Both the position numbers and the translations under genes were made by a program. From an uncultured Mailhella sp. (GTDB taxonomy: Bacteria; Desulfobacterota; Desulfovibrionia; Desulfovibrionales; Desulfovibrionaceae), in contig NZ_CAJJIC010000001.1 in NCBI RefSeq assembly GCF_905187505.1, forward strand, positions 24,264 through 88,263: a stretch of DNA of 64,000 nt, in the 5' to 3' direction. Shown piece by piece: positions 1,712 through 36,505 of this stretch (within the stretch, counting starts at the first letter, position 1; the number at the start of each line of letters is the position of its first letter). The notes under the pieces are model-generated. The model saw only the letters and a program-made list of their open reading frames with translations. It searched no databases and had not been told where the DNA came from.

Positions 1712-2764
1712 ATGAGCTTTTCCCGTTCCGACGCATACGCCTCCGCCGGCGTCGACATCACTGCCGCCAACGAACTGGTTTCCCGCATCAGGACCATGGT
1801 GGCCAGCACGCAGACCCACGGCGTCCTTTCGGACATAGGCGGCTTCGGCGGCCTGTTCCGTCCCGACATCACGGGCATGCAGGCTCCGGTTCTCGTGGCG
1901 GGCACCGACGGCGTGGGAACCAAGCTCAAGATGGCCTCCATGTTCAACAGACATGACACCGTGGGCATCGACCTTGTGGCCATGAGCGTGAACGACTGTC
2001 TGGTTCTCGGCGCAAAGCCCCTGTTCTTTCTTGACTACTTTTCCTGCGGCGAGCTGAACGTGGAGCAGGCGACCACCGTCGTCGGCGGCATCGTCGAGGG
2101 CTGCAAAATGAGCAACTGCACGCTGCTCGGCGGGGAAACGGCGGAAATGCCCGGCATGTACGCCAACGGAGACTATGACCTGGCGGGCTTCTGCGTGGGC
2201 ATCGTGGACGGACCGAACATCGTGGACGGCTCCACCATCAGCGTGGGCGACGTCATCATAGGCCTGGCCTCTTCCGGTCTCCACTCCAACGGTTTTTCCC
2301 TCGTGCGCAAGATCTTTGAAGAGAGCGGCGCAAGGCCCGACGACATCGTACCCGGCACCGACCGCACCTTTGCCGACGTGCTGCTCACGCCCACCGTCAT
2401 CTACGCCGATCAGGTGAAGTCCATCATGCGCGACCTGCCCATCAAGGGCATGGTCCACATCACGGGCGGCGGCTTCTACGACAGCATTCCCCGCGTGCTT
2501 TCGCCCTCCGTGTGCGCAAGCATCCGCTTCTCGAGCTGGGAACGTCCCGCCATCTTCAACTGGCTGAAGGAACAGGGAAATCTCACCTGGCCGGAAATGC
2601 TCCAGGTCTTCAACTGCGGCATAGGCTACATCATGATCACCGACCGCAACACGGCCGACGACATGCTCCCCCGCTTCAAGTCCATGAATACGGACGCGTG
2701 GGAAATAGGCACCATAGTCCGGCGCAAGGACAACCAGGAACAGGTGGAGATTTCCTTTGACTGA
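1712..2764 (+). CDS. purM: Phosphoribosylformylglycinamidine cyclo-ligase (AIR synthetase)
   Basis: 350 aa with a typical PurM N-terminus (YASAGVDITAAN...), DIGGFGG, GTDGVGTKL and full PurM-length architecture. AGGAGA RBS lies before the ATG. Confidence 0.95.
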   Translation: MSFSRSDAYASAGVDITAANELVSRIRTMVASTQTHGVLSDIGGFGGLFRPDITGMQAPVLVAGTDGVGTKLKMASMFNRHDTVGIDLVAMSVNDCLVLGAKPLFFLDYFSCGELNVEQATTVVGGIVEGCKMSNCTLLGGETAEMPGMYANGDYDLAGFCVGIVDGPNIVDGSTISVGDVIIGLASSGLHSNGFSLVRKIFEESGARPDDIVPGTDRTFADVLLTPTVIYADQVKSIMRDLPIKGMVHITGGGFYDSIPRVLSPSVCASIRFSSWERPAIFNWLKEQGNLTWPEMLQVFNCGIGYIMITDRNTADDMLPRFKSMNTDAWEIGTIVRRKDNQEQVEISFD

Positions 2765-3209
2765 TTTTCCCAAACCCTGTCGCTATGTGGTGAGCGCCTG
2801 CCTTGCGGGCACCCCCTGCCGTTATGACGGACGCTCGAACCTGCGCCCGGAAATCGCCGCGCTCGTGGAGAGCGGCGAGGCCGTGCCCGTGTGCCCCGAG
2901 GTCCTCGGAGGACTGCCCACGCCCCGCACGCCGAGCGAACGGCGGGGAGAGCGCGTCGTGTCCGCCGAGGGGGACGACGTCACGGGAGAATTCTCGGCCG
3001 GGGCCGAAGCTGCGCTCTACATTGCCGAGGAATGCGGCTGTTCGGCCGCCGTTCTCAAGGCCCGCTCTCCTTCCTGCGGATGCGGGCGCATTTACGACGG
3101 CACCTTCACCCACACGCTTGTCGACGGCGACGGACTCTTCGCCGCCCTTCTGCGCAAAAAGGGCTTCCAGCTCTTTACCGAAGAAACCTTCTCTGCGGAA
3201 AAGGCATGA
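2757..3209 (+). CDS. DUF523 (TudS-like, 2-thiouracil desulfurase family) protein
   Basis: VSACLAGTPCRYDG...PVCPEVLGGLPTPR...ARSPSCGCG matches the DUF523 Cys pattern. The track start is TTG at 2757, overlapping the purM stop. GTG at 2787 is an alternative start. Confidence 0.75.
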   Translation: MTDFPKPCRYVVSACLAGTPCRYDGRSNLRPEIAALVESGEAVPVCPEVLGGLPTPRTPSERRGERVVSAEGDDVTGEFSAGAEAALYIAEECGCSAAVLKARSPSCGCGRIYDGTFTHTLVDGDGLFAALLRKKGFQLFTEETFSAEKA

Positions 3210-4150
3210 AGCGCGGCGTTCTTCTGGTAGCCTACGGCTGCGGCAACATTCGCGGGGCTGCGGCCCTGCGTGCCGTGCAGGCCGCCACGCAGGCACGCTT
3301 CCACCTGCCCGTCCGCTGGGCGTTCACGTCCGAAGCCATGCGCCTCAGACTCGCAAGCTCCCGCACGAAGTCCGACTCCGTTCTCAAGGCTCTGAAGAGA
3401 ATGCGCTATGAGCGCTACACCCATGTCGCCGTGCAGCCTCTGCATCTCATCCCCGGCATGGAGTACGACGGGGTGGCCGCCGACTGCCGCGTCATAGCGG
3501 AAGAAGGCAGCATGACCGTCAGTCTCGGCCGGCCGCTTCTCTCCAGTCTCGATCCTGAAGACCCATGCGTGGCGCAGGCCGCCGGAACGCTTCTCAGACA
3601 CATTTCTCCCCTGCGCTCTTCCAGTGAGCCCGTGGTGTGCATGGCCCACGGCAGTCGTCATGAATGCGACATTCTCTATCGGCGCTGGGGCGATGCCGTG
3701 CGCGCGCAGGATCCGCACATTCATGTGGCGTGCATGGTCGGTTCCGGCATGGTTCGCCCCGACGAAGCCACGCTGGAATCGCCCGCCTTCGACGGGCTCG
3801 ACATGCTGCTGCCGCTGCTTTCCGCCGAAGCCGCCCCCAGCGGCCGGATCTGGCTTCTGCCGCTGCTTTCCGTGGTGGGACGACACACGCTGGAAGACAT
3901 GGCGGGCGCGTCCCCCTCATCATGGAAAAGCAGACTTGAAGCCGCGGGCTTCCGCGTACAGGCCGAGCTCAGGGGCCTTGCCGACGATCCCGCCTTCGTG
4001 GATCTGTGGCTGGACCGGCTGGATGCGGCACTTACCGCTCTGAACGCCGCTGCCGGAAACGCACGAGCCTCCCGCGCCGCGTCCGCCCAGTCTGTTTCCG
4101 CATCGAAACTCTTTTTTCCCGCTTTCTTTCCCTCATTCAAGGAGACTGCC
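3206..4150 (+). CDS. cbiK: Sirohydrochlorin cobaltochelatase CbiK-like domain. There is no in-frame stop; the ORF continues into the aminotransferase and ends at 5347.
   Basis: MKRGVLLVAYGCG..., VAVQPLHLIPGMEYD, VVCMAHGSRHE and LLSVVGRHTLEDMAG align by eye with Salmonella CbiK (LLVVSFGTS, IQSLHIINGDEY, FMGHGASHH, LVAGDHAINDMA). The ATG at 3206 overlaps the DUF523 stop (ATGA). The end coordinate is only the nucleotide before the internal ATG, not a stop codon. Confidence 0.6.
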
Positions 4151-5347
4151 ATGTCCGCTTCCGTTCTCAGCTCCGCCATGGAGCAAAATCTTTCTCAGGG
4201 ATCCATGATCCGGCGGATGTTTGAAGCCGGCATCGAGCTGCGCAAGAAATACGGCGACGACGCCGTGTGCGACTTCAGCCTCGGCAATCCCGACCTCGCT
4301 CCGCCCGCCGAAGCGGCCCGCGCCATGAGCGCCCTTGCCGCCCGTCTGTCCGAACCCGGCATTCTCGGCTACATGCCCAACGGCGGATTCGGCTGGGCTC
4401 GCGAAAAGCTGGCCGCATGGCTGAGCGACCAGCAGAAGACGCCCCTCAAGGCTCGGCACGTCATGCTCGGCTGCGGCGCGGCAGGCGTGATGAACGCCTT
4501 TTTCCACACCGTGCTCGAACCCGGCGACGAAGTGCTCACCGTGGCTCCCTTCTTCGGCGAATACCGCTTCTACGTGAGCAATCACGGCGGCACGCTGCAT
4601 CCTGTTCCCTGCCGGGCCGAAGACTTCGGTCCCGACGTGGAGGCCCTTGCCGCCGCCGTCACGCCCCGCACCCGCGCGCTCATCATCAACTCCCCCAACA
4701 ACCCCTCCGGAGCTGTCTACTCCAAAGAAGACATCATGAGCCTCGCCGCCATGCTGGAAGAAGCCTCGAAGCGCATCGGCCGCATCATCTATCTCGTGGC
4801 CGACGAACCCTACCGCTTCCTTGCCTACGACGGCATCGACGTGCCCGCCGCGCTGCCGCTCTACCGGCACAGCGTGGTCATCAGCTCCTTTGCCAAGAAC
4901 TACGGCATGGCCGGCGAACGCGTGGGCTACATCGCGGTCAATCCCGACATGGAAGATGCCGACAAGCTCATGGACGGCCTCATCTTCTCCAACCGCGTGC
5001 TCGGCTTCGTGAATCCGCCCGTGGTGGGTCAGTACCTCATGGCCGAATGCCTCGGCACCTCCACCGACGAGGCCCTCGCCATCTACACCTGCCGCCGCAA
5101 CAAGCTTGCCGCCATCCTCGCGGACGCAGGCTACGAATTCACGCCGCCCAGAGGCACGTTCTACTTCTTCCCCAAGGCCCCCGGCGGTGACGACAAGGGC
5201 CTCGTGGAACGCCTCACGAAGAATCTCGTGCTTGCGGTCCCGAGCTCCGGCTTCGGCTATCCCGGTTACATCCGTCTGTCCTTCGCCGTGGAAGACGCCG
5301 TCATCGAGCGTTCCGCCGAAGGCTTCCGCAAGGCACTGAAAGGCTGA
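4151..5347 (+). CDS. Class I/II pyridoxal-phosphate-dependent aminotransferase (AspC-like)
   Basis: FSLGNPDLAPP, INSPNNPSGAVY, SSFAKNYGMAGERVGY (PLP lysine) and IRLSFA. It has its own AAGGAG (4139-4144) 6 nt before the ATG at 4151, yet is in frame with the upstream CbiK-like ORF. Confidence 0.85.
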   Translation: MSASVLSSAMEQNLSQGSMIRRMFEAGIELRKKYGDDAVCDFSLGNPDLAPPAEAARAMSALAARLSEPGILGYMPNGGFGWAREKLAAWLSDQQKTPLKARHVMLGCGAAGVMNAFFHTVLEPGDEVLTVAPFFGEYRFYVSNHGGTLHPVPCRAEDFGPDVEALAAAVTPRTRALIINSPNNPSGAVYSKEDIMSLAAMLEEASKRIGRIIYLVADEPYRFLAYDGIDVPAALPLYRHSVVISSFAKNYGMAGERVGYIAVNPDMEDADKLMDGLIFSNRVLGFVNPPVVGQYLMAECLGTSTDEALAIYTCRRNKLAAILADAGYEFTPPRGTFYFFPKAPGGDDKGLVERLTKNLVLAVPSSGFGYPGYIRLSFAVEDAVIERSAEGFRKALKG

Positions 5348-7838: not shown

Positions 7839-8315
7839 TCAGTCGTGATGATACGGCATGTTGCGGATCAGCGTTTCCGCCCGGTAAAGCTGCTCAAGGA
7901 GCACCACGCGGGCCAGCTCGTGCGGCAGGGTCTGCGGGCCCAGCGCCATGAGATGTCTCGCCTTCTCCCGCACGCTGTCGTGCAGGCCGAAAGGCCCTCC
8001 CACGATGAAGCACGGACGACGCGTCGCATCCGAGGACAGTCCTTCCAGAAACCGTGAGAAGTCCCGGGACGTCATGGAACGCCCCTTTTCATCGAGGCAT
8101 ATCACGATGTCCTGAGGGGCAAGGGCGGCGAGTATGCGCTTTCCTTCCTCCTCCACGCGCCTCGCGATCGGAAGCGCGGGATCGGAATCGCGGATGACGG
8201 TGTCCGTCACCTTCCTGAAGCGGGCAAGCCTTTCCAGATAATGGGCCGCCGCATCCTTCCAGAAAGGCGCATGCGGTCTGCCGACGGTCATGATTCGCAG
8301 GGGTTTCAAGCTCAT
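7839..8315 (-). CDS. rlmH: 23S rRNA (pseudouridine1915-N3)-methyltransferase RlmH
   Basis: SPOUT-type RlmH: LRIMTVGRPHAPF..., DEKGRSMTSRDFS, FIVGGPFGL, HELARVVLLEQLYRA. Start at the internal MSLKPLRI (8315). Confidence 0.9.
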   Translation of the reverse strand: MSLKPLRIMTVGRPHAPFWKDAAAHYLERLARFRKVTDTVIRDSDPALPIARRVEEEGKRILAALAPQDIVICLDEKGRSMTSRDFSRFLEGLSSDATRRPCFIVGGPFGLHDSVREKARHLMALGPQTLPHELARVVLLEQLYRAETLIRNMPYHHD

Positions 8316-8511
8316 GAGGCTCTTATAAGCGGAGCCTGCGCCGGAAGCAAGTCCAAGCTCCGCCCATGCCTCCCGTCTTCCGAAAGGGACAAGAAATTCT
8401 GCATCTGTCCGGTGCCGCTTTCGGGAACGGCGGTCGCCCGGAAGAACCATGAACTCGTCATGAGCCTTTCATCGCAGCATGATGAAAAAGGCAAAAACGG
8501 CGAAATGAGTC

Positions 8512-8542
8512 TTGACAGTTTCACAGCATCTTGAATAAGAAT
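8512..8542 (+). promoter_or_regulatory. Sigma70-like promoter candidate far upstream of yedF
   Basis: TTGACA (8512-8517), 18-nt spacer, TAAGAAT (8536-8542). It would give a leader of about 0.5 kb before the ATG at 9035. Confidence 0.3.
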
Positions 8543-9034
8543 CATGAAGTTGATGACAACATCCTGAATTTTTTTTCATCCGTGTCGCGCATCAGGCGCG
8601 CACGTTGGCCAAGCATACGTTGCCCGTTCAGCCATGATGACGTCCATGTACAAGATTCCCTTCACCTGACTCTCCCGCTTCTGTGACGGGAAGAGTTTCT
8701 TTCTTGGACATCAACGGTTCCGGCAGCGCTGATTGATTTAATTCCGATCTCGCCGCTTCGACGCTCTTTCCGGTCACCTGCCCGGAAGGAGCGTTTTTGT
8801 TGCGGACTCGCGACGACGCCTCTGTCCTTTCTTCCCGAAGCGACGGCTTCCCGGCACCAGACATGAAGAACCGATCGCCCGGCGTGCCCCCCCCCGGCCC
8901 GTCATCCCCGTTCTGCCGCAATGCGCCTGTCCGCAACGCCGTCTTCCCTTGCTCCGCATCCGCAAATCGTGCGGAGCATGTCCCAGAGATTCCGCATTCA
9001 TCATTCTTCACCTGCAACCCTTTTTGGAGGTCCC

Positions 9035-9637
9035 ATGTCCGTTTCTCTTGATTGCCGAGGCCTGGCCTGCCCTGAACCTGTCATACGCACCCGCGACGCT
9101 CTGAAAGATTCTCCCGACCTCGTTGAAGTCTGCGTGGACAACGTGCCCGCCACGGAAAACGTCAGTCGCTTCCTCGGCCGTTCCGGCTACGTCACGGACA
9201 TCAAAAAGACCGGCGACTCGGAATGGAAGGTCTGCGGCCGCAAGGCAGGCATCAACTGCGCCGAGGCCGAAGACATCATTGCCGAGGCTGGCCCCTCGCG
9301 CTCCGGCAAGACTCTGGTGATGCTCACCTCCGACGTCATCGGTTCCGGCAGCGACGAACTCGGCGCCAGACTCATGGCAAACTTCCTCGCTACGCTGCCC
9401 GAAATGAATGAGCTTTGGCGCATCGTCATGGTCAACGGCGGCGTGCGCCTCGCTTCCACGCCCGGCAAGGCTCTGGATGCCCTGAAGAAGCTGGAAGCGT
9501 CCGGCGTGAGCATCCTTGTGTGCGGCACCTGCCTTGAATTCTTCCACCTCACCGAGCAGAAGCAGGTCGGCGAAACCACCAACATGCTGGACATCGTCAC
9601 AAGTCTCGACCTTGCCGACAAGGTCATCCGTCCGTAA
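9035..9637 (+). CDS. yedF: YedF-type selenium/sulfur metabolism protein (TusA/SirA-like N-domain plus DsrE-like C-domain)
   Basis: LDCRGLACPEPV (the CPxP motif of TusA/SirA), then a DsrE-like half (LVMLTSDVIGSG...ILVCGTCL). About 200 aa. GGAGG lies 5 nt before the ATG at 9035. Confidence 0.8.
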   Translation: MSVSLDCRGLACPEPVIRTRDALKDSPDLVEVCVDNVPATENVSRFLGRSGYVTDIKKTGDSEWKVCGRKAGINCAEAEDIIAEAGPSRSGKTLVMLTSDVIGSGSDELGARLMANFLATLPEMNELWRIVMVNGGVRLASTPGKALDALKKLEASGVSILVCGTCLEFFHLTEQKQVGETTNMLDIVTSLDLADKVIRP

Positions 9638-9697
9638 CAGCATCCCGCCGTCGCGCCTCCATGCCGAGGCGCGACGCGGAAGAACAGGAGAAACATC

Positions 9698-10483
9698 ATG
9701 CCGGTGGCAGGCGTCGACGTAGGCTCGGTGGCCGCAAAAGCGGTCATTCTGGATGAACTCACCAACAACGTGCTGGCCCATGCGCTCGTGCCCACGGGCT
9801 GGAATCCCCGACAGGCAGGCGAAGACGCCCTTGACTGGGCATGCGCACAGGCCGGGGTGGACCGCCCGGCGCTGACGCGCGTCACGGGAACGGGCTACGG
9901 ACGCATAGCCCTGCCCTTTGCGGACAAAACCGTCACGGAAATCACCTGTCATGCTCTGGGGGCCGTGCATCTCTTTCCGGGCACCGGCGTCGTTCTGGAC
10001 ATCGGCGGCCAGGACAGCAAGGCCATTGCCGTAGATGCCGACGGATCGGTACAGGACTTCGTCATGAACGACAAGTGCGCTGCCGGAACAGGCCGCTTTC
10101 TTCAGGTGCTTTCCGGCATTCTGGGCATGGACGTTCAGGCTCTGGACGAGGCCGCGGGTCGGGGCAAGCCCGCGGACATTTCCAGCATGTGCGCCGTGTT
10201 TGCCGAAACGGAAATCGTCGGTCTGCTGGCGCAGGGCGTGAGTCCCGAAGACGTGGCCGCCGGAGTGTTCCGATCTCTGGCAAAACGCATGGTCTCGCTT
10301 TCCAGACGCATCGCCTGTCGCGGCGAGTACACCTTCACAGGCGGACTCGCCACGCTGCCGGCCTTTGCGCGCTGCCTGTCCTCGGAACTCGGCACCACCG
10401 TCAATGTGGCAAACGATCCTCAAAACACAGGCGCACTCGGCGCGGCGCTCATTGCCGCGCGCCTTGCTAAGGAGAACTCATGA
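9698..10483 (+). CDS. BcrAD/BadFG/HgdC-family ATPase activator (acyl-CoA dehydratase activase-type)
   Basis: ASKHA-fold motifs GVDVGSVAAKAV and DIGGQDSK, plus the bridging-cluster Cys contexts NDKCAAGTGRF and SSMCAVFAETE. AGGAG RBS. The stop overlaps the next start (ATGA). Confidence 0.9.
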   Translation: MPVAGVDVGSVAAKAVILDELTNNVLAHALVPTGWNPRQAGEDALDWACAQAGVDRPALTRVTGTGYGRIALPFADKTVTEITCHALGAVHLFPGTGVVLDIGGQDSKAIAVDADGSVQDFVMNDKCAAGTGRFLQVLSGILGMDVQALDEAAGRGKPADISSMCAVFAETEIVGLLAQGVSPEDVAAGVFRSLAKRMVSLSRRIACRGEYTFTGGLATLPAFARCLSSELGTTVNVANDPQNTGALGAALIAARLAKENS

Positions 10484-11613
10484 GCTATCCCAGCGTTGAA
10501 CGATTCAAGGACGTCACCGACCGCAACGTTCTGGCCCTTCAGGAAGCGAAGCAGGCCGGAGTGAAGGTAGTCGGTCAGTACTGCATATACTCCCCTCTGG
10601 AAATCGCCCTGGCGGCGGGTGCCGTCCCCGTTTCGCTGTGCGGCACGAAAAACGATTCCATTCCACCCGCGGAGAGCATTCTTCCGCGCTCGCTCTGTCC
10701 GCTCATCAAGAGCAGCTTCGGCTTTGCCCTTGAGGACAGCTGCCCGTACCTCGCCGCCTCCGACATCGTCGTTGCCGACACCACCTGCGACGGCAAAAAA
10801 AAGATGTTCGAGCTTTTGTCCGAACGCAAGAGCATGTTCATGCTCCAGCTTCCGCAGATTCAGAACGAGCCCGCGCTCGCGTACTGGAAGGGACAGTATG
10901 AGCGTCTCGTCCGGGAACTCGAGCTGCGCTTCGGCGTGGTCATAGGAGAAAAGGAGCTGCGCTCGGCCATACGCAAGGCCAACCGCTTCCGCCTCGCCCT
11001 CAAGAGCGTGCTCGACCTCGCGAAAAAAAAGCCCTCGCCGCTTTCCGGCATGCAGCTCATGGAAATCGCGCACCGTGCCTCCTTCGTGCCTGACTGGGAC
11101 AAGGCCACGGAACTGCTGGAAGACATGGCACGGGAAGTCGACGCTTCCGGCGAAAGCCCCTTCGCCGCCTCCGCGCCGCGCATTCTTCTTACCGGCGTGC
11201 CCGTGGGGCTCGGCTCCCACAAGGTAGTGAAGCTGCTGGAAGACTGCGGGGCAAGCGTCGTCTGCCTGGACAACTGCTCGTGCTACAAGAAGGTACGTCT
11301 CATGATCGATGAGAATGCCGATCCGCTGGATGCCCTTGCCTCCCGCTACCTCGACACGCCCTGTTCGGTCATGTCGCCCAATCCGAACCGCTACGCCGTG
11401 CTGGAAAATCTGGCCGCGGAATTCCGGGTCGACGCCGTGGTCGACCTCACCTGGCAGGGCTGCCAGACCTATGACGTGGAATCGTGGTCGGTCAAGAGAT
11501 TCGTCCGGGAGAAGCTGCATCTTCCCTTCCTGCAGATCGTCACCGACTACTCTCCTGCCGACACGGAGCAGCTCAAGGTCCGCGTGGAAGCCTTCCTTGA
11601 AATGCTCCGCTGA
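10480..11613 (+). CDS. 2-hydroxyacyl-CoA dehydratase / benzoyl-CoA reductase subunit-family protein; single subunit, double-cubane-cluster-protein-like
   Basis: 377 aa with family-typical Cys contexts (VSLCGTKND, RSLCPLIKSS, VVADTTCDGKKKMFE, CQTYD). Translationally coupled to the activator. No second subunit gene is present. Confidence 0.75.
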   Translation: MSYPSVERFKDVTDRNVLALQEAKQAGVKVVGQYCIYSPLEIALAAGAVPVSLCGTKNDSIPPAESILPRSLCPLIKSSFGFALEDSCPYLAASDIVVADTTCDGKKKMFELLSERKSMFMLQLPQIQNEPALAYWKGQYERLVRELELRFGVVIGEKELRSAIRKANRFRLALKSVLDLAKKKPSPLSGMQLMEIAHRASFVPDWDKATELLEDMAREVDASGESPFAASAPRILLTGVPVGLGSHKVVKLLEDCGASVVCLDNCSCYKKVRLMIDENADPLDALASRYLDTPCSVMSPNPNRYAVLENLAAEFRVDAVVDLTWQGCQTYDVESWSVKRFVREKLHLPFLQIVTDYSPADTEQLKVRVEAFLEMLR

Positions 11614-11633
11614 GGCAAGGAGCGCTTTTTCAT

Positions 11634-12416
11634 ATGCAGGACATCCGCATCAACCATCTGTCTTTCGGCTACAGTCCGGAACATCTTGTGCTGGACGACA
11701 TCGACCTCTCCATCGACACCGGGTCGTTCATCTGTCTGCTCGGCCCCTCCGGCTGCGGGAAAAGCACGTTTCTCCGTCTTCTGGCAGGACTTGAGCACCC
11801 CGTGAAGGGCGACATCACCATGAACGGCCGACGCATAGAAAAGCCCGGCCTCGACCGCGGCATGGTGTTTCAGGACTACGGACTCTTTCCGTGGATGACC
11901 ACGGGAGAAAACATCATGCTGGCGCTTGAGCAGCGTTTTCCCAGTGACGGAAAAAAACACTGGAAAGAAACGGCGCTTGAAAAAATACGCGACGTCGGAC
12001 TCGACGAGTCCGTGTTCGACAAGCTGCCCAAGGAGCTTTCAGGCGGCATGAAGCAGCGCTGCGCCATCGCCCGCGCCTTTGCCATTGATCCTCCCGTACT
12101 GCTCATGGACGAACCCTTCGGCGCGCTCGACGCCGTCACCCGGGCAAGACTTCAGGATCTCGTGCTCGAGCTGTGGGCCAGAACCGATCCCAAGAAGACC
12201 GTCTTCTTCGTCACCCACGACGTGGACGAGGCGCTGCTGCTCTCTAGCCGCATTCTTGTGTTCGGCCAGTCGCCGAGCAGGGTCATCTACGACTGCTCCA
12301 TACCGCCGGAAAAACGTCCCACGCGCGAAACGCAGTTCGACGACCTGGAAACGCTGAAACTGCGAAACACCCTCATCCATCAGATCAACCGTGACGTGAA
12401 CAGGCGCATGGCCTGA
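11634..12416 (+). CDS. ABC transporter ATP-binding protein (NitT/TauT family: nitrate/sulfonate/taurine type)
   Basis: Walker A GPSGCGKST, signature LSGGMKQR, Walker B LLMDEPFGALD, MVFQDYGLFPW typical of SsuB/TauB-like ATPases. Confidence 0.9.
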   Translation: MQDIRINHLSFGYSPEHLVLDDIDLSIDTGSFICLLGPSGCGKSTFLRLLAGLEHPVKGDITMNGRRIEKPGLDRGMVFQDYGLFPWMTTGENIMLALEQRFPSDGKKHWKETALEKIRDVGLDESVFDKLPKELSGGMKQRCAIARAFAIDPPVLLMDEPFGALDAVTRARLQDLVLELWARTDPKKTVFFVTHDVDEALLLSSRILVFGQSPSRVIYDCSIPPEKRPTRETQFDDLETLKLRNTLIHQINRDVNRRMA

Positions 12417-12446
12417 ACGCGTACAAATCATGCAAGGAGCCTACCC

Positions 12447-13481
12447 ATGAAAAAAATTCTCGTCTCAATGCTTACCGCCGCTCTGCTGACCTGCGGCACG
12501 GCCATGGCCCAGGACAAGCCCGAAGTGGACACCGTGCGCTGGGCCCGCGCCAACAGCGGCAACGTGCTCGTCACTCTTGCCAAGAACAACGGCTATCTCA
12601 AGGACGTGGGCATCAACGTCATTGAAATTCCGCTCAACTCCACCTCTGATGCCCTCACTGCCCTGAACGCCAAACAGGTCGACGTTACCTCCAACAACGG
12701 CACCAACAACCCTCTGCAGTTCATGGCCAAGGGCTCGGATTTCACCATCGTGGGCGGCTACATGCTCAAGGGCATGTACATCGTAGCCAAGAAGGGCACA
12801 GGCTGGCACGGCGTTTCCGACTTCATCGGCAAGAAGATCGCTGCGCCCAAAAGCCAGACATGGATCACCGGTCCCCTCATGTGGGCGGGGTACAACATCG
12901 ACGACGTGACCTGGCTCACCTACAGCACCAACAGCGACCGCCTCACCTCCGTCATCAAGGGTGAGGCCGACTACGCCAGCCTGAGCGGCGACCTTCTGTT
13001 CCGCGTGGGCAACATGAAGGATCAGCTGGAAATCGTGGTGTGGGCCGACCAGCTTCAGCCCAACTACGGCTGCTGCCGCATGAACATGAACAGCGACTTC
13101 GTAAAGGCCAACCCCAAGACGGTCAAACTGCTGCTCAAGGCTCTCATCCGCTCCGAGCAGTACCTTCTCTCCCATCCCGATGAAAGCGTGAAGATACTTG
13201 CCAGGGAACTGCATGCCAGCGAAGACTTCGTGGCCGCATATCTCAAGAATCCCAACTACCGTCCCAGTGTCGATCCCGTGCGCAACGCCGTAAAGGCCAC
13301 CTGGAAGATCATGATGGATACCGGTTTCCTGCCGGAGAGCGCCAGGAACTACGACCTCGACGCCCACATCAACGTGGATCTCTACAAGGCCGCTCTCGAT
13401 GAGCTCGTTGCGGAACGCTACAATGAAGATCCCGCGTTCTACGATGACCGTCTCGCCTTCTTCAAGGCCAACAACTTCTAA
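12447..13481 (+). CDS. ABC transporter periplasmic substrate-binding protein (NMT1/THI5/SsuA-like)
   Basis: Signal peptide MKKILVSMLTAALLTCGTAMAQ. Size and position sit between the ATPase and permease of a NitT/TauT system. Confidence 0.8.
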   Translation: MKKILVSMLTAALLTCGTAMAQDKPEVDTVRWARANSGNVLVTLAKNNGYLKDVGINVIEIPLNSTSDALTALNAKQVDVTSNNGTNNPLQFMAKGSDFTIVGGYMLKGMYIVAKKGTGWHGVSDFIGKKIAAPKSQTWITGPLMWAGYNIDDVTWLTYSTNSDRLTSVIKGEADYASLSGDLLFRVGNMKDQLEIVVWADQLQPNYGCCRMNMNSDFVKANPKTVKLLLKALIRSEQYLLSHPDESVKILARELHASEDFVAAYLKNPNYRPSVDPVRNAVKATWKIMMDTGFLPESARNYDLDAHINVDLYKAALDELVAERYNEDPAFYDDRLAFFKANNF

Positions 13482-13538
13482 TCCGTCGGGCCCGTCCTCC
13501 GGAAGGAACGACGGGCCCTTTCCTTTCAAGGAGCGTCT

Positions 13539-14300
13539 ATGGTCAGGTTTGTCACGTTCCTCAAGAAATACTGGATCACCATCCTCATCTATATAGGCAT
13601 CATTCTCGGCTACAAATACATTGCTGACACCAAGGCCTTCAACTCCTTTCTCTTTCCCCCCACGAGCGAAATAGGCGCCGCGTTTCTGAAGGACTGGAAG
13701 ACGCTTCTCATGAACATGCTCTATTCCTTCCAGCTCATGATTCCTTCCATCGTCATTGCCGTAGCCTTCGCCCTTTTTCTCGGAACGCTCATGGGCATGC
13801 ACAAAAAATTCCGGGAAGTCATACACCCTGTCATCTATTCCATCAGCGTCATTCCGGCCATTCTCATGTCGCCCTTCGCGCTGCTTCTTGCCCCGAACTT
13901 TCGCGCGGCCTCGCTGTTTCTCGTGGTCTACAACACCATATGGGCCACGCTCTTTGCCACCATCAACGGCATCATGACCATAGACAGGCGCTATCTCGAC
14001 AATGCCGCCACGCTGGAGCTTACGGGCTTCAAAAGAATGCGCAAGGTCATTCTTCCCGCAGCCATGCCGTCCATACTTTCCGGATTCATCACGTCCCTGC
14101 GCGGTTCCTTTCTGGTTCTCGTCTATGCCGAAATGTACGGCGCGGAATACGGCATGGGCTTCTACGTCAAAAAGTACACGGAATACGGCCTGTACGCGGA
14201 AGCCTGGTGCGGATTCGTATTCATGGTCATCGTGCTCGTCATTGTCATGCAGTTTTTTGAAAAGGCCAAAAACCGTCTGCTCAGATGGACGATTCACTAA
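13539..14300 (+). CDS. ABC transporter permease (SsuC/TauC-like)
   Basis: Polytopic hydrophobic 253-aa protein with an EAA-like loop (IDRRYLDNAATLELTGFKRMRKVILPAAMP). Confidence 0.85.
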   Translation: MVRFVTFLKKYWITILIYIGIILGYKYIADTKAFNSFLFPPTSEIGAAFLKDWKTLLMNMLYSFQLMIPSIVIAVAFALFLGTLMGMHKKFREVIHPVIYSISVIPAILMSPFALLLAPNFRAASLFLVVYNTIWATLFATINGIMTIDRRYLDNAATLELTGFKRMRKVILPAAMPSILSGFITSLRGSFLVLVYAEMYGAEYGMGFYVKKYTEYGLYAEAWCGFVFMVIVLVIVMQFFEKAKNRLLRWTIH

Positions 14301-14323
14301 GCCTGCACTTGGAGGTTGATTCT

Positions 14324-15505
14324 ATGAAGATAACCAGTGTCGACGTCATACTCATGGACATGCATCCTGCGGACAATCCCGGCTGGGCTCCCGTGCTCTG
14401 CCGCGTCTACACCGATGCCGGCATCTACGGCGACGGCGAGGCCGCGCTTGCCTACGGCAACGCGCACAGGGCCGCATTCGGCATGATTCAGGACTTTGCC
14501 AGAAGTATTCTCGGCATGGACCCGCTTGAAAACGAAGTCATCTGGGAAAAGCTCTACAAGTCCTCGTTTTGGGGACAGAACGGCGGTCCCGTGGTCTTTT
14601 CCGGCATATCGGCCCTCGATATTGCGCTGTGGGACATCAAGGGCAAACACTTCAACGTGCCCGTCTACACGCTTCTGGGCGGCAAAATGCGCGACAGTCT
14701 CAGATGCTACGCCTCGCAGCTCCAGTTCGGCTGGGATGACAGAAAGACTCCCGCAATCACCGTGGAAGACTACGCATCCAATGCCATGAAGGCCGTGCGC
14801 GAAGGCTACGACGCCATCAAGATAGACTTCTTCACCTTTGCCGAGGACGGACATCGTCTGAAGGCCGAGGAGACGACCCGCATTCTCACGCCGAAGAACT
14901 ACGACATGATAAAGCGCCGTCTCTCGGCCGTGCGCGAGGCCGTGGGCGAAGGTGTGGACATCATCATGGAAAACCATTCCTACATCGACGCGCAGGGCGC
15001 GGTTCAGCTCGGCCGTCTTGCGGAAGAATACGGCGTGCTCTACTTTGAGGAACCCTGCACTCCCACGCCCAAAATGAACAAGTTCGTGGCCGACCGCGTG
15101 TCCGTACCCATCAGTCAGGGCGAACGCATCTACACCCGCTGGGGCTACGCGCCCTATTTTGAAGACGGATCCATTCAGCTCATCCAGCCCGACATCGGCA
15201 ACTGCGGCGGCATAACGGAAACCAAAAAGGTCTGTGACCTCGCCCATATCTACGACGTGGGCGTGCAGGCGCACGTGTGCGCCTCCCCGCTCTCCACTGC
15301 AGCGGCACTGCATCTGGAAGCGGCCATTCCCAACTTCACCATTCACGAACAGCACGTCTACTGCCGCTACGACTACAACCGAAGGCTCTGCATTCACGAC
15401 TATCAGCCGGAAAACGGACGCTTCTCCATTCCCGACCTCCCGGGACTGGGAAACGAACTTTCCGAATACTGCTTTGCGCACGGCGAAGTCGTCACGGTAC
15501 GCTGA
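14324..15505 (+). CDS. Enolase-superfamily enzyme (mandelate racemase/muconate lactonizing family, acid-sugar-dehydratase-like)
   Basis: ALDIALWDIKGK, candidate metal ligands in AIKIDFF / IIMENHS / LYFEEP, then IQPDIGNCGGITE and VQAHVC. Start at MKITSVD (ATG 14324), with GGAGG at 14311-14315. Confidence 0.85.
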   Translation: MKITSVDVILMDMHPADNPGWAPVLCRVYTDAGIYGDGEAALAYGNAHRAAFGMIQDFARSILGMDPLENEVIWEKLYKSSFWGQNGGPVVFSGISALDIALWDIKGKHFNVPVYTLLGGKMRDSLRCYASQLQFGWDDRKTPAITVEDYASNAMKAVREGYDAIKIDFFTFAEDGHRLKAEETTRILTPKNYDMIKRRLSAVREAVGEGVDIIMENHSYIDAQGAVQLGRLAEEYGVLYFEEPCTPTPKMNKFVADRVSVPISQGERIYTRWGYAPYFEDGSIQLIQPDIGNCGGITETKKVCDLAHIYDVGVQAHVCASPLSTAAALHLEAAIPNFTIHEQHVYCRYDYNRRLCIHDYQPENGRFSIPDLPGLGNELSEYCFAHGEVVTVR

Positions 15506-15551
15506 CCGCAAATCGCCGCGGCTCGCACGTCTCGTGCGCGCCGCTTCCTCT

Positions 15552-15597
15552 GAGCGCCACAGGGAGCCCTGAATTTCCGGGGCTCCCTGTGGCGCTC
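15552..15597 (+). terminator. Strong stem-loop ending the yedF-to-enolase cluster
   Basis: Perfect 18-bp inverted repeat GAGCGCCACAGGGAGCCC / GGGCTCCCTGTGGCGCTC with a 10-nt loop. Only a weak T tract (TTCCCT) follows. Confidence 0.6.
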
Positions 15598-16023
15598 TTC
15601 CCTGAAGGCGCGAGCGCTGAAAAACTGTCGAGGCAGTAACGGCCACGGTCTCCGGCGCTGCCCAAGGCATTTTCCGTCATGCTTTCTCCTGCCCATCATC
15701 TCTTCCAGGAAGCAAAGGCGCGGTTCTTTACGGCCGGTTCGTTTTTGCGTTCTCATCCAGCGCCGTTTCTCCGGTCCGCCTTCTCCTCTCCCTTGCAAGT
15801 CATCAGGCGAACAGGTATGAAAAAAAGGAACGGTCTGACGTTTCCGCTTCAAAGCCGGACATTCCCGAAATCCCGCATTTCGGGGATCAGCCGTCCGGGC
15901 CTTTGGAAAAACCGTTTTTCCGCGCCCGGAAGGCGACGGCCGTTCCAGCCTCCGCCGGAACAGCGAACGCGGGATCGGTCATCCGTTCTGCGATCAGCCT
16001 TTACTGTTGCCACGGAGAAAAAT

Positions 16024-16680
16024 GTGACCCTTTCCCTTCAGGAAGCGGCCCGTCGCATAAAAGACGGAGGCCTGCTCCTTTATCCCACGGAAACCTTTTT
16101 CGGCATAGGATGCCGGGCCGACGACGATGCCGCCGTGCACCGCGTGTTCCGATGCAAAAAGCGTTCTCTTTCCATGCCGCTGCCCGTCATTCTGGACGAC
16201 GAAAGCCAGCTTGACCTTGTGGCCGTCCCCGGAAGCGACCTTACCGGAGACATCGCCGCTCTTGCCCGCTTCTGGCCCGGGCCTCTCACCCTGCTTCTGC
16301 CCGCAAAGGATGATCTTCCCGAGGCGCTCACCGGAGGTACCGGCAAAATCGCCGCACGGGTAAGCTCTCATCCCGCGGCCCGGGCTCTGGCCGGGCGCTG
16401 CGGCTTCCCCATCGTTTCGAGCAGCGCCAACATCAGCGGCAGAGCGGCCGTCACCCGCGCATCCGAGCTCGATCCGGAACTTCTTCAGTCTCTCGATCCT
16501 TCCACCGACGGCATTCTCGACGAGCCTCCCGCTCCCGGCGGCGGAGAAGCCAGCACCATCGTGGAACCTCTGGGGGAACGCCGCCTGCGCCTTCTGCGCG
16601 AAGGCGCCCTGCCCCTCTCCACCCTCGAACAGGCCGGGTTCACCATTCTGACTTCATCAGCTTCCGAGGTTCACGCATGA
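16024..16680 (+). CDS. tsaC: L-threonylcarbamoyladenylate synthase (TsaC/YrdC-type)
   Basis: LLLYPTETFFGIGC, SMPLPVIL, FWPGPLTLLL, RVSSHP, IVSSSANISG and STIVE. Start proposed at GTG 16024 after GGAGA. The track ORF extends to 15679 through non-homologous, proline-rich sequence. Confidence 0.7.
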   Translation: MTLSLQEAARRIKDGGLLLYPTETFFGIGCRADDDAAVHRVFRCKKRSLSMPLPVILDDESQLDLVAVPGSDLTGDIAALARFWPGPLTLLLPAKDDLPEALTGGTGKIAARVSSHPAARALAGRCGFPIVSSSANISGRAAVTRASELDPELLQSLDPSTDGILDEPPAPGGGEASTIVEPLGERRLRLLREGALPLSTLEQAGFTILTSSASEVHA

Positions 16681-33708: not shown

Positions 33709-34077
33709 ATGACTTTTTTTGATCACGTCCACCTCTGCTGCACCGACCTCGACGCCATGATCAACTTCTGGAAGCAGGCCTTCGGCGCTGAATTCGTGCG
33801 CTATCGCAAATTCGGAGGCGCCGACGGTGCGGTCGTCACGCTCTCCGGCGTTCAGATCTTCCTCAAGAAAATTCCCGAGGGCGCACCTCTGCCCGACGGC
33901 TCCGCCTGCGGAGTCAACCACCTGGGCATCCGCGTGGACGATCCCAACATCATGGCGGAAAAGCTCGTGAACGAATTCGGAGGAAAGCTGCTCAACAAGG
34001 CCAGCGACGACTGTTCCTTCGTCGCCGTGCCGCAGGGCGTCACCTTCGAGCTCATGCGCGTAGGCGCCGAAGTCTGA
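33709..34077 (+). CDS. VOC (glyoxalase/bleomycin-resistance/dioxygenase) family protein
   Basis: FDHVHLCCTDLDAMINFW... and VNHLGIRVDD. 122 aa. Confidence 0.8.
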   Translation: MTFFDHVHLCCTDLDAMINFWKQAFGAEFVRYRKFGGADGAVVTLSGVQIFLKKIPEGAPLPDGSACGVNHLGIRVDDPNIMAEKLVNEFGGKLLNKASDDCSFVAVPQGVTFELMRVGAEV

Positions 34078-34103
34078 GCTCTTCCTTTTCACTTTCTGAA
34101 GAA

Positions 34104-34142
34104 AAGAAGGCCTTTTTCTGCGTGAAAAAGGCCTTCTTCTTT
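34104..34142 (+). terminator. Rho-independent terminator after the VOC gene
   Basis: AAGAAGGCCTTTTTC-TGCGT-GAAAAAGGCCTTCTT perfect 15-bp stem, followed by CTTT. Confidence 0.7.
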
Positions 34143-34354
34143 ACAACTCCGGAACAGAACGACTCCCTTTTTTCTGCCTTTTCCCGTTCCTTCCGCCTTC
34201 CGCCGCAATCACGGAGAAAAGACCTGTTCTGATCCCGGCATTGCCGTGTTCTTCCCTTCGCGCGAACGCCGCTTTTTCAAGAACGCCGCAGCGGAAGACG
34301 ACAAAAAAACCGCTTCGCACATCACCCCGTTTTTCAGTCCTCACGGCCGTTCTC

Positions 34355-34383
34355 TTGACAGTCGTTTCCACTGAGGATAATGT
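34355..34383 (+). promoter_or_regulatory. Sigma70-like promoter of tRNA-Arg
   Basis: TTGACA (34355-34360), 17-nt spacer, TAATGT (34378-34383). The tRNA 5' end lies 11 nt downstream. Confidence 0.6.
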
Positions 34384-34393
34384 CTTCCCTCGT

Positions 34394-34470
<77 letters not shown>

Positions 34471-34483
34471 AGCATCAGCCTGA

Positions 34484-34516
34484 AAAGCGGTTCGGCGCAC
34501 AGCCGGGCCGCTTTTT
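34484..34516 (+). terminator. Terminator-like hairpin after tRNA-Arg
   Basis: AAAGCGG...CCGCTTT outer stem with inner CGGC/GCCG pairing, followed by TTTTT. Confidence 0.5.
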
Positions 34517-34734
34517 GCGTATGCATGCCATGCCGAAAGCCCACACAGAAGGCCAGCGGACTCAGCCTCGGTCAGCGCTCTGCCGCCACGGCATAAGTCT
34601 TCCCAGCCCTTTCGGGCATCTCCCCATCCCTGCGGCGTCTTCCTCAGGAGAATATTGCCTGACGAACTCATGCATGGTATGGGCATAGGCGTTGAACATT
34701 TTCTTTTCTTCACGGACAAGAGCGGGACAGCGAC

Positions 34735-36174
34735 ATGGTCAGAAAGGAAAAAGCCATCGACAGCTTTCAGGATAGAATCCGGGAAATTCCCGAAGCCCTC
34801 ACCGTCGTGGACCTGCCCGACTTCTTCGACTTCATCGACAACGCGCGCTTTGCCATCAACTTCGTCGATGAAAACGGCGTCATCATCTATGCCAACAAAG
34901 AAGCCAGAGAATCCCGCATCATTCCCGAGGAGTTCGTAGGACGCAGCCTCTATGATCTGAAAAAATACGGCATGATCCTGAATCCGGCAGCCATAAAGGT
35001 CATAGAGTCCGGCAAAGTGAACATCGGAGAGGTCACCCAGTACAGCGGCCGCACGTTCATGTCCATCACGGTGCCCGTCATAGACGACCAAAAAAGACTC
35101 GAGGGCGTCATGGCACTGACGTGCGACATCGCAGACGTGTATAACTTCATCATCGCGTCGTCCTCCAGGACACGGCATATCCAGGCCCCTCAAAGCTCCA
35201 CGTCCGAGCTGTTTCCTGACGCCGACGTCGTCATTGCCGAATCGTCGGAAATGAAGAACGTTCTGAAGCTGGTCGATAAGATAGCGCCCACCAGCGCTCC
35301 CGTGCTCATTCTCGGAGAGTCCGGCACCGGCAAGGAAGTGATGGCCAAGCTGATCCACAGCAAAAGCAGCCGCAGCAGGGAAAGACTGCTCGCGGTCAAC
35401 TGCGGCGCCATTCCGCCGGCGCTCATGGAATCGGAACTCTTCGGCTACGAAAAGGGAGCCTTTACGGGAGCATGGCGAAGCACTCCGGGCCTTTTTGAAG
35501 AGGCGGACGGCGGTACCCTCTTCCTCGACGAAATAGGAGATCTTGACCTTCAGCTTCAGGTCAAGCTGCTGCGCGTTCTTCAGGAAGGCAAATTCCGGCG
35601 CGTAGGCGGACGGAAGGACATGGACTGCCATGTGCGCATCATTGCGGCCACCAACAAAAATCTGCCTCTTCTCGTCAGGCAGGGACTGTTCCGCTCCGAT
35701 CTTTTCTACCGTCTGGACGTGTTTGCCCTTTCTCTCCCTCCACTGCGGGAGAGACGCCAGGACCTCATGAAGTTCATTCCCTTCTTTCTGGAAAAATACA
35801 ACAAGGCCTACGGATTCGCCCGCTACTTGACGAGCGATGCATGGACCCGGCTTCTTTCCTATGACTGGCCGGGCAATGTCAGAGAACTGAGCAACATGCT
35901 TGAACGGCTCGTCGTGCTGGCGGACAAAAATGAAATCGGCTCCGAAGACCTCGACAGGCATCTTCGACGCTCTTCACGCAAAAGCGAGAGCAGGCACATT
36001 CCGTCTCCTGACGACACCGAAACCATGACTCTCCCCGAAGCCACGGAAATTCTGGAAAGATCCATGATAGCCGACGCCCGCACAAAGTACGGAACGTGCC
36101 GGGCCATGGCCGATCATCTCGGCATCGATTTTTCCACGGTGGCCAGAAAGATGCGCAAATACGGCATACACTGA
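34735..36174 (+). CDS. Sigma54-dependent enhancer-binding transcriptional activator with an N-terminal PAS sensor (no receiver domain)
   Basis: PAS-like N-domain (FAINFVDENGVIIYANKEA...), AAA+ sigma54-interaction domain (GESGTGKEV, GAFTGA, LFLDEIGDL, RVIAATN), and C-terminal Fis-type HTH (MADHLGIDFSTVARKMRKYGI). Confidence 0.9.
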   Translation: MVRKEKAIDSFQDRIREIPEALTVVDLPDFFDFIDNARFAINFVDENGVIIYANKEARESRIIPEEFVGRSLYDLKKYGMILNPAAIKVIESGKVNIGEVTQYSGRTFMSITVPVIDDQKRLEGVMALTCDIADVYNFIIASSSRTRHIQAPQSSTSELFPDADVVIAESSEMKNVLKLVDKIAPTSAPVLILGESGTGKEVMAKLIHSKSSRSRERLLAVNCGAIPPALMESELFGYEKGAFTGAWRSTPGLFEEADGGTLFLDEIGDLDLQLQVKLLRVLQEGKFRRVGGRKDMDCHVRIIAATNKNLPLLVRQGLFRSDLFYRLDVFALSLPPLRERRQDLMKFIPFFLEKYNKAYGFARYLTSDAWTRLLSYDWPGNVRELSNMLERLVVLADKNEIGSEDLDRHLRRSSRKSESRHIPSPDDTETMTLPEATEILERSMIADARTKYGTCRAMADHLGIDFSTVARKMRKYGIH

Positions 36175-36463: not shown

Positions 36464-36480
36464 TGTGGCAAGAATCCACA
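36464..36480. promoter_or_regulatory. Candidate enhancer (UAS) dyad for the sigma54 activator
   Basis: TGTGGCAAGAATCCACA = TGT-N11-ACA, with arms TGTGG/CCACA, about 120-130 bp upstream of the -24 element. Its left half TGTGGCAA recurs as the reverse complement TTGCCACA at 36538-36545. Confidence 0.45.
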
Positions 36481-36505
36481 TCTATATGCCCGTATTTTCA
36501 CGTTT

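Follow-up and report, generated by a model that had tools for sequence, protein, structure and literature searches.

A seven-gene cluster of Mailhella that joins a double-cubane cluster protein with YedF, a Cys-Cys importer and an enolase-superfamily enzyme, and its counterparts in other phyla

This study concerns seven plus-strand genes at 9035-15505 of a 64-kb stretch of DNA from an uncultured Mailhella species (the window, meaning the whole stretch analysed). The cluster brings together genes for YedF, a double-cubane cluster protein (DCCP) with its ATPase reductase (DCCP-R), an ATP-binding cassette (ABC) importer whose binding protein has a Cys-Cys motif, and an enolase-superfamily enzyme. 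A preliminary description of the same DNA had proposed a neighbourhood analysis, and it was found that the juxtaposition is not unique to this genome: a DCCP gene lies beside an orthologous enolase gene or ABC-enolase cassette in at least four further gene orders, in other phyla. It is possible, though somewhat short of probable, that the operon imports a sulfur- or selenium-containing organic acid, processes it by beta-elimination and a reduction driven by ATP, and delivers the chalcogen to YedF.

The preliminary description knew of no pathway combining these modules. For the links of DCCP to the Cys-Cys importer family and to the enolase clade, and for the DCCP::PucR fusion regulators described below, nothing was found in the literature searched. 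No paper in that literature joins an enolase-superfamily (mandelate racemase) gene with selenium genes, with 2-hydroxyacyl-CoA dehydratase or with methylthio-alkane reductase (Mar), and the words 'enolase', 'racemase' and 'mandelate' were not found in the text of the most relevant papers. The other links are not new, since the association of YedF with an activase and an HGD-D protein and the co-occurrence of DCCP with SelD are already published (PMC5322559; 10.1101/2022.07.06.499078; PMC10418091). STRING links YedF to an activase and an HGD subunit (PMC5322559, Table 1); that table names no importer or enolase gene as a STRING partner, and a term search of the text gave no mention of them.

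The seven genes and their products

In the open reading frame (ORF) listing, the intergenic gaps from gene 1 to gene 7 are 60, -4, 20, 30, 57 and 23 nt, and the gap of -4 nt is an ATGA overlap of genes 2 and 3 at 10480-10483. A GGAG/AGGAG-like ribosome-binding site lies 5-10 nt upstream of the ATG codon of all seven genes. The same-strand order, the ribosome-binding sites and the overlap had been noted before and were confirmed. The terminator scan gave no terminator-like site on the plus strand inside the cluster. The operon-like packing indicates that the seven genes are one operon of the Mailhella species. Since six independent metagenome contigs of the same species share the identical layout, an assembly artefact is excluded. 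A second Mailhella species (about 90% identity; proteins 81-94%) has the same seven genes with the same chromosomal neighbours. The families named in the preliminary description (YedF, HgdC/BcrAD ATPase, NitT/TauT importer, enolase superfamily) hold at the family level in Pfam and NCBIfam, and the genes read as follows.

9035-9637, plus strand: YedF, 200 aa, TusA and DsrE-like domains
9698-10483, plus strand: DCCP-R, HgdC/BcrAD-type ATPase with a predicted [4Fe-4S] cluster, 261 aa, by family match
10480-11613, plus strand: DCCP, putative [8Fe-9S] reductase, 377 aa, NF040772
11634-12416, plus strand: ABC ATPase, NitT/TauT type, 260 aa, PF00005
12447-13481, plus strand: periplasmic binding protein, NMT1/SsuA/THI5 fold, PF09084
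13539-14300, plus strand: ABC permease, 253 aa, PF00528
14324-15505, plus strand: enolase-superfamily enzyme, galactonate-dehydratase-like, 393 aa, MR_MLE_N and MR_MLE_C

The start of gene 7 is most likely 14324 and not 14285, since a ribosome-binding site precedes 14324 and all homologues begin with MKIT.

Judged by its domains and motifs, gene 1 is a two-domain, selenium-associated YedF, sulfurtransferase-like. It scores 200.8 bits against TIGR03527 (cutoff 110), Pfam places TusA at residues 5-70 and DsrE at residues 110-198, and a CPEP motif and a CGTC motif lie at residues 12 and 163. TusA and DsrE proteins use cysteines as carriers of sulfur or selenium.

Gene 2 scores 197.5 bits for PF01869 and 247.6 bits for TIGR00241 (cutoff 125.4). 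Its motifs KCAAGTG (Cys127) and CAVFAE (Cys165) place two cysteines 38 residues apart; the cluster cysteines of the reference DCCP-R are C115 and C152 (PMC9351452). Gene 3 scores 467.2 bits for NF040772 (cutoff 350) and matches PDB entries 7YYL and 6ENO with E values of about 1e-72. Its Cys35, 54, 73, 88, 103, 266, 295 and 328 are invariant across nine homologues, and the seven cluster-ligating positions (35, 54, 73, 103, 266, 295 and 328) as well as Cys88 align with cysteines of 7YYL/6ENO. From these matches, gene 3 is a double-cubane cluster protein, with the cluster and the ATP-dependent reduction predicted, and gene 2 is by the same token its cognate ATPase reductase. A structure of DCCP has been available since 2018. 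Electrons reach its double-cubane cluster from DCCP-R at the expense of ATP hydrolysis, and the physiological function of DCCP was still described as unknown in 2022 (PMC9351452). Genes for DCCP occur in less than 5% of genomes, and 955 of 970 DCCPs are in SelD-containing genomes; comparative genomics thus ties DCCP to selenium without a pathway (10.1101/2022.07.06.499078).

The genes nearest in kind are those of the Carboxydothermus hydrogenoformans DCCP/DCCP-R (6ENO, 7YYL; Jeoung and Dobbek 2018, 2022). Genes 2 and 3 belong to the same two families and are adjacent and translationally coupled. In contrast to that system, the product of gene 3 lacks about 45 residues at its N terminus, its Cys spacings (X18, X162 and X28) are 1-6 residues off the published X19, X166-170 and X32-34, and the window pair has YedF, importer and enolase-superfamily genes around it. 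The preliminary description had called gene 3 dehydratase-like. Its HGD-D family membership stands, but it reads as a double-cubane cluster reductase; assignment to 2-hydroxyacyl-CoA dehydratases and their relatives was rejected at 97.5 versus 700 bits for HadC, 51.8 versus 453.8 for BzdN and 32.1 versus 421 for BcrC, the BcrB score likewise being far under its cutoff.

None of the importer parts reaches a curated equivalog cutoff, be it of the Sao, Ssu, Tau or Ntr models or of any other. In NCBIfam, the ABC ATPase matches best with ntrCD, SaoA and TauB, all under their cutoffs, and the permease with SaoP (78 bits, cutoff 295). The binding protein gave 90.8 bits for SsuA_fam TIGR01728 (cutoff 163.5); it was rejected as an SsuA or TauA equivalog at scores below the cutoffs, the fold alone being shared. 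Its AlphaFold model has a pLDDT of 92. In a fold search the nearest solved structures were THI5, SsuA, ThiY, NrtA, CmpA and TauA, all at no more than 20% identity, and from these family-level matches the ligand is not readable.

A Y-G-C-C-R motif of the binding protein (Cys209-Cys210, window 13071-13076) is invariant in 28 homologues, down to 40% identity. The Cys-Cys pair was found at the same alignment column in an unrelated, DCCP-linked binding protein of L179 (L-numbers are labels of compared loci) and in the 27%-identical binding protein of L026, whose gene lies beside an enolase paralogue; it is absent from both NMT1-type binding proteins of L011. As a separate observation, Y-x-C-C-R is invariant in the binding proteins that accompany the enolase clade or DCCP in L179, L026, L007, L013, L015, L174 and L180. 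A CCCFC motif occurs in THI5, which shares this fold. Haft and Gwadz described a Cys-Cys motif for SaoX and called it rare among binding proteins (10.1101/2022.07.06.499078).

Gene 7 has an N-terminal capping domain (PF02746, 54.7 bits) and a C-terminal barrel (PF13378, 193.5 bits), and scores 239.9 bits for PRK14017 (DgoD), with a cutoff of 311. Assignments as DgoD (239.9 versus 311), ManD (217 versus 750) and gluconate dehydratase (188 versus 550) were rejected. The closest structures are 2O56 (E 1e-129), 2OX4 and 2GL5, deposited under names without function, and the literature search gave nothing on the function of these three or of 4E6M. The invariant residues are K166, D168, E216, H218, E242, E267, D290 and H317; in 23 homologues, E216-N-H218, E242, E267, D290 and H317 are invariant. 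Their catalytic roles, as three acidic metal ligands, an x-His acid and a His-Asp base, are presumed from the motif positions of DgoD and ManD. Mapped by motif in this way, the residues are consistent with alpha-proton abstraction and beta-elimination. In enolase-superfamily dehydratases, the alpha-proton is taken from a carboxylate and a beta leaving group is eliminated.

Recurrence of the linkage and its sulfur and selenium context

Genomes and metagenomes were scanned with the enolase alignment, and the matches listed are mostly distant paralogues with few orthologous loci. Among the matches listed, a DCCP-family gene is present in five of the 11 distinct architectures around enolase orthologues of at least 64% identity, and DCCP, activase or YedF was found in none of the 152 control loci (2.18 Mb in all), which surround enolase paralogues of less than 64% identity. 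Since DCCP is also rare among genomes, as stated above, chance is a very unlikely cause of the adjacency.

The gene orders differ among lineages. In a Coriobacteriia-like locus (L015-17), ModABC-like genes, DCCP, an ABC ATPase, a binding protein, a permease and the enolase are followed by DCCP, activase, a GT4 glycosyltransferase, SelD, YedF and a selenocysteine-lyase-type cysteine desulfurase; the DCCP, SelD, YedF and cysteine desulfurase all score above curated NCBIfam cutoffs. In an abundant gut Firmicute (L093/L174/L175), YedE and TusA genes precede the ABC-enolase cassette, and the genes after it encode a PucR regulator, a DCCP::PucR fusion of 715 aa, a DCCP on its own and an activase. 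A DCCP::PucR fusion gene adjoins the enolase gene in L013 and L014, and the full ABC cassette precedes it in L013 only. Other Desulfovibrionaceae have an orthologous activase-DCCP pair at 69-73% identity. In L179, a different CC-motif NMT1-type ABC system lies directly upstream of this pair, and neither YedF nor an enolase gene lies beside the pair in L178, L179 and L181.

The fusion gene is always beside the enolase gene, and a second PucR-family regulator adjoins it in L013, L093/L174 and L014. The L174 fusion scored 495 bits for NF040772 (the fusion was scored at L174 only), and the eight conserved cysteines are retained in the L174, L013 and L014 fusions. This suggests that the fusion may be a transcription factor with a double-cubane cluster domain as its sensor.

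Some further observations on these loci are as follows. The DCCP and PucR-type helix-turn-helix fusions, of 715-723 aa, lie at L174 12400-14547, L093 12400-14553, L013 4759-6912 and L014 483-2654. L015, L016 and L017 are much alike, with only small indels in the compared stretch, on contigs of 59-81 kb, and their records are labelled Ruminococcus sp., Coriobacteriaceae bacterium and Treponemataceae bacterium; either contaminated metagenome bins or a very recent transfer would account for the labels. At L015 13351-14628, the GT4 glycosyltransferase gene lies between the DCCP activase gene and selD-yedF-cysteine desulfurase. A GT4 enzyme beside selenophosphate synthetase is reminiscent of the selenosugar synthase SenB of selenoneine biosynthesis.

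The closest relatives of genes 4-7 outside Mailhella are 69-81% identical and have the same gene order, in Synergistaceae and in the Firmicutes-like L007; the Synergistaceae relatives are those of the binding protein, and one enolase match is named Fretibacterium. DCCP homologues named Mailhella by their sources have 90-97% identity, and those at 69-73% were found only within Desulfovibrionaceae. The G+C content of genes 4-7 is lower than that of genes 1-3. Because their closest relatives are in other phyla and their G+C content is lower, I infer that genes 4-7 are a mobile, horizontally acquired cassette, added downstream of an ancestral activase-DCCP pair.

A connection to sulfur or selenium is supported by gene context, since YedF, YedE with TusA, SelD, cysteine desulfurase, selA-selB, rhodanese, nitrogenase-like genes and Cys/Met genes occur around the linked genes. 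In Clostridium ljungdahlii (L010), the enolase gene is near selA-selB-tRNA-Sec, an aminotransferase gene and MetNIQ. In Fusobacteriaceae (L011), it is near genes for an M20 peptidase, Cys_Met_Meta_PP, three PALP enzymes, an aminotransferase and two nitrogenase-component-1-like proteins. NifH/D/K-like genes and an aminotransferase gene lie beside the enolase gene in L013; by context, the nitrogenase-like genes may be of the Mar type. A rhodanese gene, a transglutaminase-like gene and DedA genes are near the cassette in a Synergistaceae locus (L180). In type I mlp clusters, proposed for methyl-selenide recycling or methionine salvage, selenium genes accompany DCCP, whereas sulfur genes accompany Mar (PMC10418091). 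The split around the enolase gene, DCCP with selenium and nitrogenase-like genes with sulfur, mirrors this published pattern as far as the compared loci go. Transporters of the sulfonate type reportedly flank Mar loci (10.64898/2026.08.20.746119).

As a side observation, a DUF169 gene lies immediately upstream of a 68%-identical enolase orthologue in Desulfovibrio sp. (L173 491-2540); Lin et al. 2015 (PMC5322559) give DUF169 as a STRING partner of YedE, which is selenium-linked.

On these comparisons, the cluster reads as none of the SAO, Mar, DgoD, ManD, SsuA or TauA loci, although it resembles several of them. With the selenocysteine-assisted organometallic (SAO) system of Haft and Gwadz (10.1101/2022.07.06.499078), it shares an NMT1-type Cys-Cys binding protein, an ABC system resembling NitT/TauT, a DsrE-like protein and DCCP genes as frequent neighbours; the NCBIfam models that genes 6, 4 and 5 match best include SaoP, SaoA and SaoX, respectively. 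Membership was rejected at 78 versus 295 bits for SaoP, 212 versus 360 for SaoA and 38 versus 300 for SaoX. The cluster lacks the MerB-like SaoL as well as SaoB, SaoC, SaoE and SaoT, no in-frame TGA was noted in its seven ORFs, and SAO includes no enolase-superfamily gene. With Mar (MarBHDK), it shares a low-potential metallocluster reductase powered by ATP, together with ABC transporters of the sulfonate type and genes for sulfur assimilation (PMC10418091; 10.64898/2026.08.20.746119), and orthologues of the window enolase adjoin NifH/D/K-like genes in L011 and L013. In contrast to Mar, the window has DCCP, with an ASKHA-type ATPase and an [8Fe-9S] cluster by prediction, and not a NifHDK-type enzyme; cleavage of C-S or C-Se bonds by DCCP is a proposal.

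In the YedF/YedE/SelD/selenocysteine-lyase loci of Lin et al. 2015 (Slackia heliotrinireducens), YedF adjoins an activase and an HGD-D protein (PMC5322559, Table 1). A Slackia-type selenium locus is reproduced in L015-17 with the ABC-enolase cassette inside it, whereas SelD, selenocysteine lyase, DUF3343 and YedE are all missing from the 64-kb window. Acid-sugar dehydratase operons (DgoD, ManD, GudD) have an enzyme of the same fold, with acid/base and metal-ligand positions of the kind presumed here, and an uptake system as neighbour; the window differs from them in its transporter of sulfonate/nitrate type and in having no kinase or aldolase for a 2-keto-3-deoxy product.

Regulatory regions and other features of the window

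A leader of about 0.6 kb separates yedF from the divergent rlmH gene. The preliminary description called it gene-free, which stands in that no ORF there has a family match; it nevertheless holds a conserved terminator-like hairpin and a mini-ORF. The features of the leader and of the 3' end are as follows.

8500-9034, plus strand: candidate promoter and conserved regulatory block, from a two-species alignment
8634-8669, plus strand: mini-ORF of 11 codons, candidate Met-rich leader peptide, conserved in two Mailhella species
8668-8800, plus strand: candidate alternative RNA structures, from the terminator scan and RNA folds
15552-15597, plus strand: 3' hairpin with a perfect 18-bp stem and a 10-nt loop, 46 nt past the gene 7 stop codon

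A candidate -35 element, TTGACA, is at 8512-8517, and TTGACAG is kept in the second Mailhella species; the alignment with that species gave a conserved block at about 8625-8810. A sigma-70 consensus scan of 8000-16500 gave no promoter, and no sigma-54 site was found near the operon. Rfam gave nothing at gathering thresholds in the leader or in related loci, and nothing in the leader at E values up to 5. The mini-ORF peptide is MMTSMYKIPFT in the window and MMMSMFKLPFT in the second species (L177), with three or four Met codons among the first five. A stem at 8668-8678/8685-8696 retains its pairing through one two-sided change between the two species. The terminator-like hairpin at 8759-8772/8781-8794 is followed by a U-run at 8796-8800 and lies about 240 nt upstream of yedF. 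In RNA folds, 8687-8696 (GGGAAGAGUU) pairs with 8763-8772, the 5' arm of the terminator, which makes it a possible antiterminator. From two distinct sequences, the leader looks like a ribosome-mediated, methionine-responsive attenuator, a candidate to be taken as a lead; such a Met-codon attenuator would fit a role in methionine or sulfur salvage. The caveats are that only two distinct sequences were compared, that the mini-ORF has no clear Shine-Dalgarno site and that an opposite-strand frame is conserved too. This small minus-strand frame, MSKKETLPVTE...HGRHHG, runs from 8711 down to 8628.

The 3' hairpin had been described as a perfect 18-bp stem-loop, and its arms, 15552-15569 and 15580-15597, are indeed a perfect 18-bp inverted repeat. 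The 115 nt around it fold at -76 kcal/mol (z = -8.3 against shuffles). No U-tract follows the hairpin, and it is not conserved in the second Mailhella species. It is for these two reasons called a 3'-end hairpin here; it is likely a 3'-end or stabiliser hairpin, its role as a terminator being unproven.

Some features elsewhere in the window were noted. A tRNA-Arg(CCT) gene at 34394-34470 borders a stretch of lower G+C content at 34000-38000 (0.55 versus about 0.62), which may be a genomic island; the only perfect sigma-54 consensus of the window (TGGCACAAATATTGCT, 36597-36612) lies inside it. A gene of the 2-thiouracil desulfurase family (PF04463) at 2757-3209 is downstream of purM; next comes a long ORF at 2891-5347, in which a CbiK-like domain is fused with a class I/II aminotransferase domain, the called genes of L001-L003 encoding 713-716 aa. 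The AIRS-domain gene at 1712-2764 was considered as SelD and rejected, as its sequence reads as PurM. Queries of selenocysteine-lyase-like, NifHDK-like, PucR and DUF169 type gave nothing relevant in tblastn of the window.

Possible working of the operon and its meaning

The steps of the tentative proposal given at the outset would be as follows. The SsuA/TauA-like importer would take up a small anionic organic acid bearing sulfur or selenium, and the enolase-superfamily enzyme would abstract the alpha-proton and eliminate the beta substituent to give a 2-oxo acid. DCCP-R would feed ATP-energised low-potential electrons to DCCP, which could perform a hard reductive step on the imported compound or its product, for example cleavage of a C-S or C-Se bond, in parallel to the nitrogenase-like methylthio-alkane reductases. 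The cysteines of YedF would take the released sulfur or selenium into methionine/cysteine or selenophosphate metabolism. Since an aminotransferase gene is often beside the enolase gene elsewhere, the 2-oxo acid may be transaminated, for example to methionine. Expression is probably governed by the leader through its alternative terminator and antiterminator structures. What I infer from the families and the linkage is the class of substrate, the sequence of steps and the roles of DCCP and YedF. The preliminary description had proposed uptake and reductive transformation of a sulfur- or selenium-containing carboxylate: the gene context speaks for the sulfur or selenium part; the substrate and the chemistry are conjectural.

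Several findings weigh against this proposal. The demonstrated substrates of DCCP are only acetylene, hydrazine and azide (PMC9351452), and the nearest structures of the binding protein, at no more than 20% identity, bind very different ligands. By tblastn, the 64-kb window has no SelD, SelA, SelB or YedE. The independent architectures are few (n = 11, among the matches listed). Neither the cassette nor YedF accompanies the activase-DCCP pair in L178 and L181, and no DCCP lies within 10 kb of the cassette in L007-9, where the cassette is placed between ribF and rpsO, or in L180; because of the latter loci, the link of DCCP to the cassette is frequent and not obligatory. Finally, the neighbours of a 66%-identical enolase in L182 are those of an ordinary sugar-acid locus (LacI, GH4 and a TRAP transporter), and the enolase clade is for this reason not by itself tied to sulfur or selenium.

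This last locus leads to a rather unlikely alternative, in which the operon would serve carbon or energy catabolism: an acid-sugar-like carboxylate would be imported and dehydrated, DCCP would reduce the 2-oxo-3-deoxy acid in an energetically demanding step, and YedF and the selenium genes nearby would serve DCCP, for instance as suppliers of bridging sulfide or of selenide to the double-cubane cluster, and would receive no product. Besides the L182 orthologue with its GH4 and TRAP transporter neighbours, the full galactonate-dehydratase-type set of acidic and His residues in the enzyme, the hexuronate genes adjoining L180, and the CdaR/PucR-type regulators and glycerate kinase by the cassette in L013, L014 and L174 would suit such a pathway, and a selenium-bridged cofactor is a formal possibility (Haft and Gwadz, 10.1101/2022.07.06.499078, section 24). 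However, the importer belongs to the sulfonate/nitrate family and not to a sugar-acid family. Moreover, aminotransferase, Cys/Met pyridoxal-phosphate enzyme, MetNIQ and nitrogenase-like genes recur by the enolase gene where DCCP is absent, as do sulfur-relay genes by the cassette in L180. A catalytic relation of another kind, in which the activator and a radical dehydratase act on a CoA thioester as in 2-hydroxyacyl-CoA dehydratase or benzoyl-CoA reductase, is extremely improbable: gene 3 does fall into HGD-D by Pfam, and gene 2 into BcrAD_BadFG, but there is a single HGD-D gene where two different subunits are needed, and the cluster has no CoA transferase or ligase.

The enolase enzyme would be a mere passenger if the operon served the acquisition of selenite or sulfite, with the Cys-Cys protein capturing selenite or another thiol-reactive oxyanion, DCCP reducing it to selenide with ATP-energised electrons and YedF passing it to SelD. 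The invariant vicinal Cys pair, the binders of small oxyanions (nitrate, bicarbonate) within the NitT/TauT family, the selenium links of both YedF and DCCP (10.1101/2022.07.06.499078) and the reduction of small nitrogenase-type substrates by DCCP (PMC9351452) agree with this idea. It is quite improbable all the same, as the enolase gene is the most constant partner of the binding-protein family, which argues for an organic acid, and the CC motif is also found in binding proteins without nearby DCCP (L007, L026, L180). It is unlikely, too, that two unrelated units, a YedF/DCCP-R/DCCP module and a mobile ABC-enolase cassette, became adjacent by chance and are read through, with no pathway in common. 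A juxtaposition confined to this genome, together with separate conservation of the modules elsewhere, would have refuted the preliminary description, and the juxtaposition is not so confined. Each unit does occur alone, the cassette in L007 and the activase-DCCP pair in L178, genes 4-7 look horizontally acquired, and a transposase gene adjoins the cassette in L174; yet joint occurrence recurs, re-created independently in at least four other gene orders in other phyla against none of the 152 control loci, DCCP::PucR fusion regulators lie directly beside the cassette, and genes 3 and 4 are separated by 20 nt with a ribosome-binding site and no hairpin.

If the linkage were mere genomic proximity, the cluster would be an ordinary mosaic operon. 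If the proposed import and reduction of a sulfur- or selenium-containing acid were extended, DCCP might be the catalytic core of an anaerobic chalcogen salvage made up of the CC-importer, a dedicated enolase enzyme, C-S/C-Se cleavage and YedF as the carrier. This extension is rather doubtful; were it true, it would provide the first physiological substrate of DCCP and would explain the near-universal co-occurrence with SelD. The linkage of DCCP to one importer family and one enolase clade narrows the search for the substrate to a few purifiable proteins, and the binding-protein ligand would reveal what the substrate is. The organisms with the linkage are gut anaerobes, Mailhella being a gut sulfite-respiring bacterium, and the genus is an organosulfonate-respiring sister genus of Bilophila (PMC13219744). 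Because of this, the pathway could bear on the competition for sulfur and selenium in the gut.

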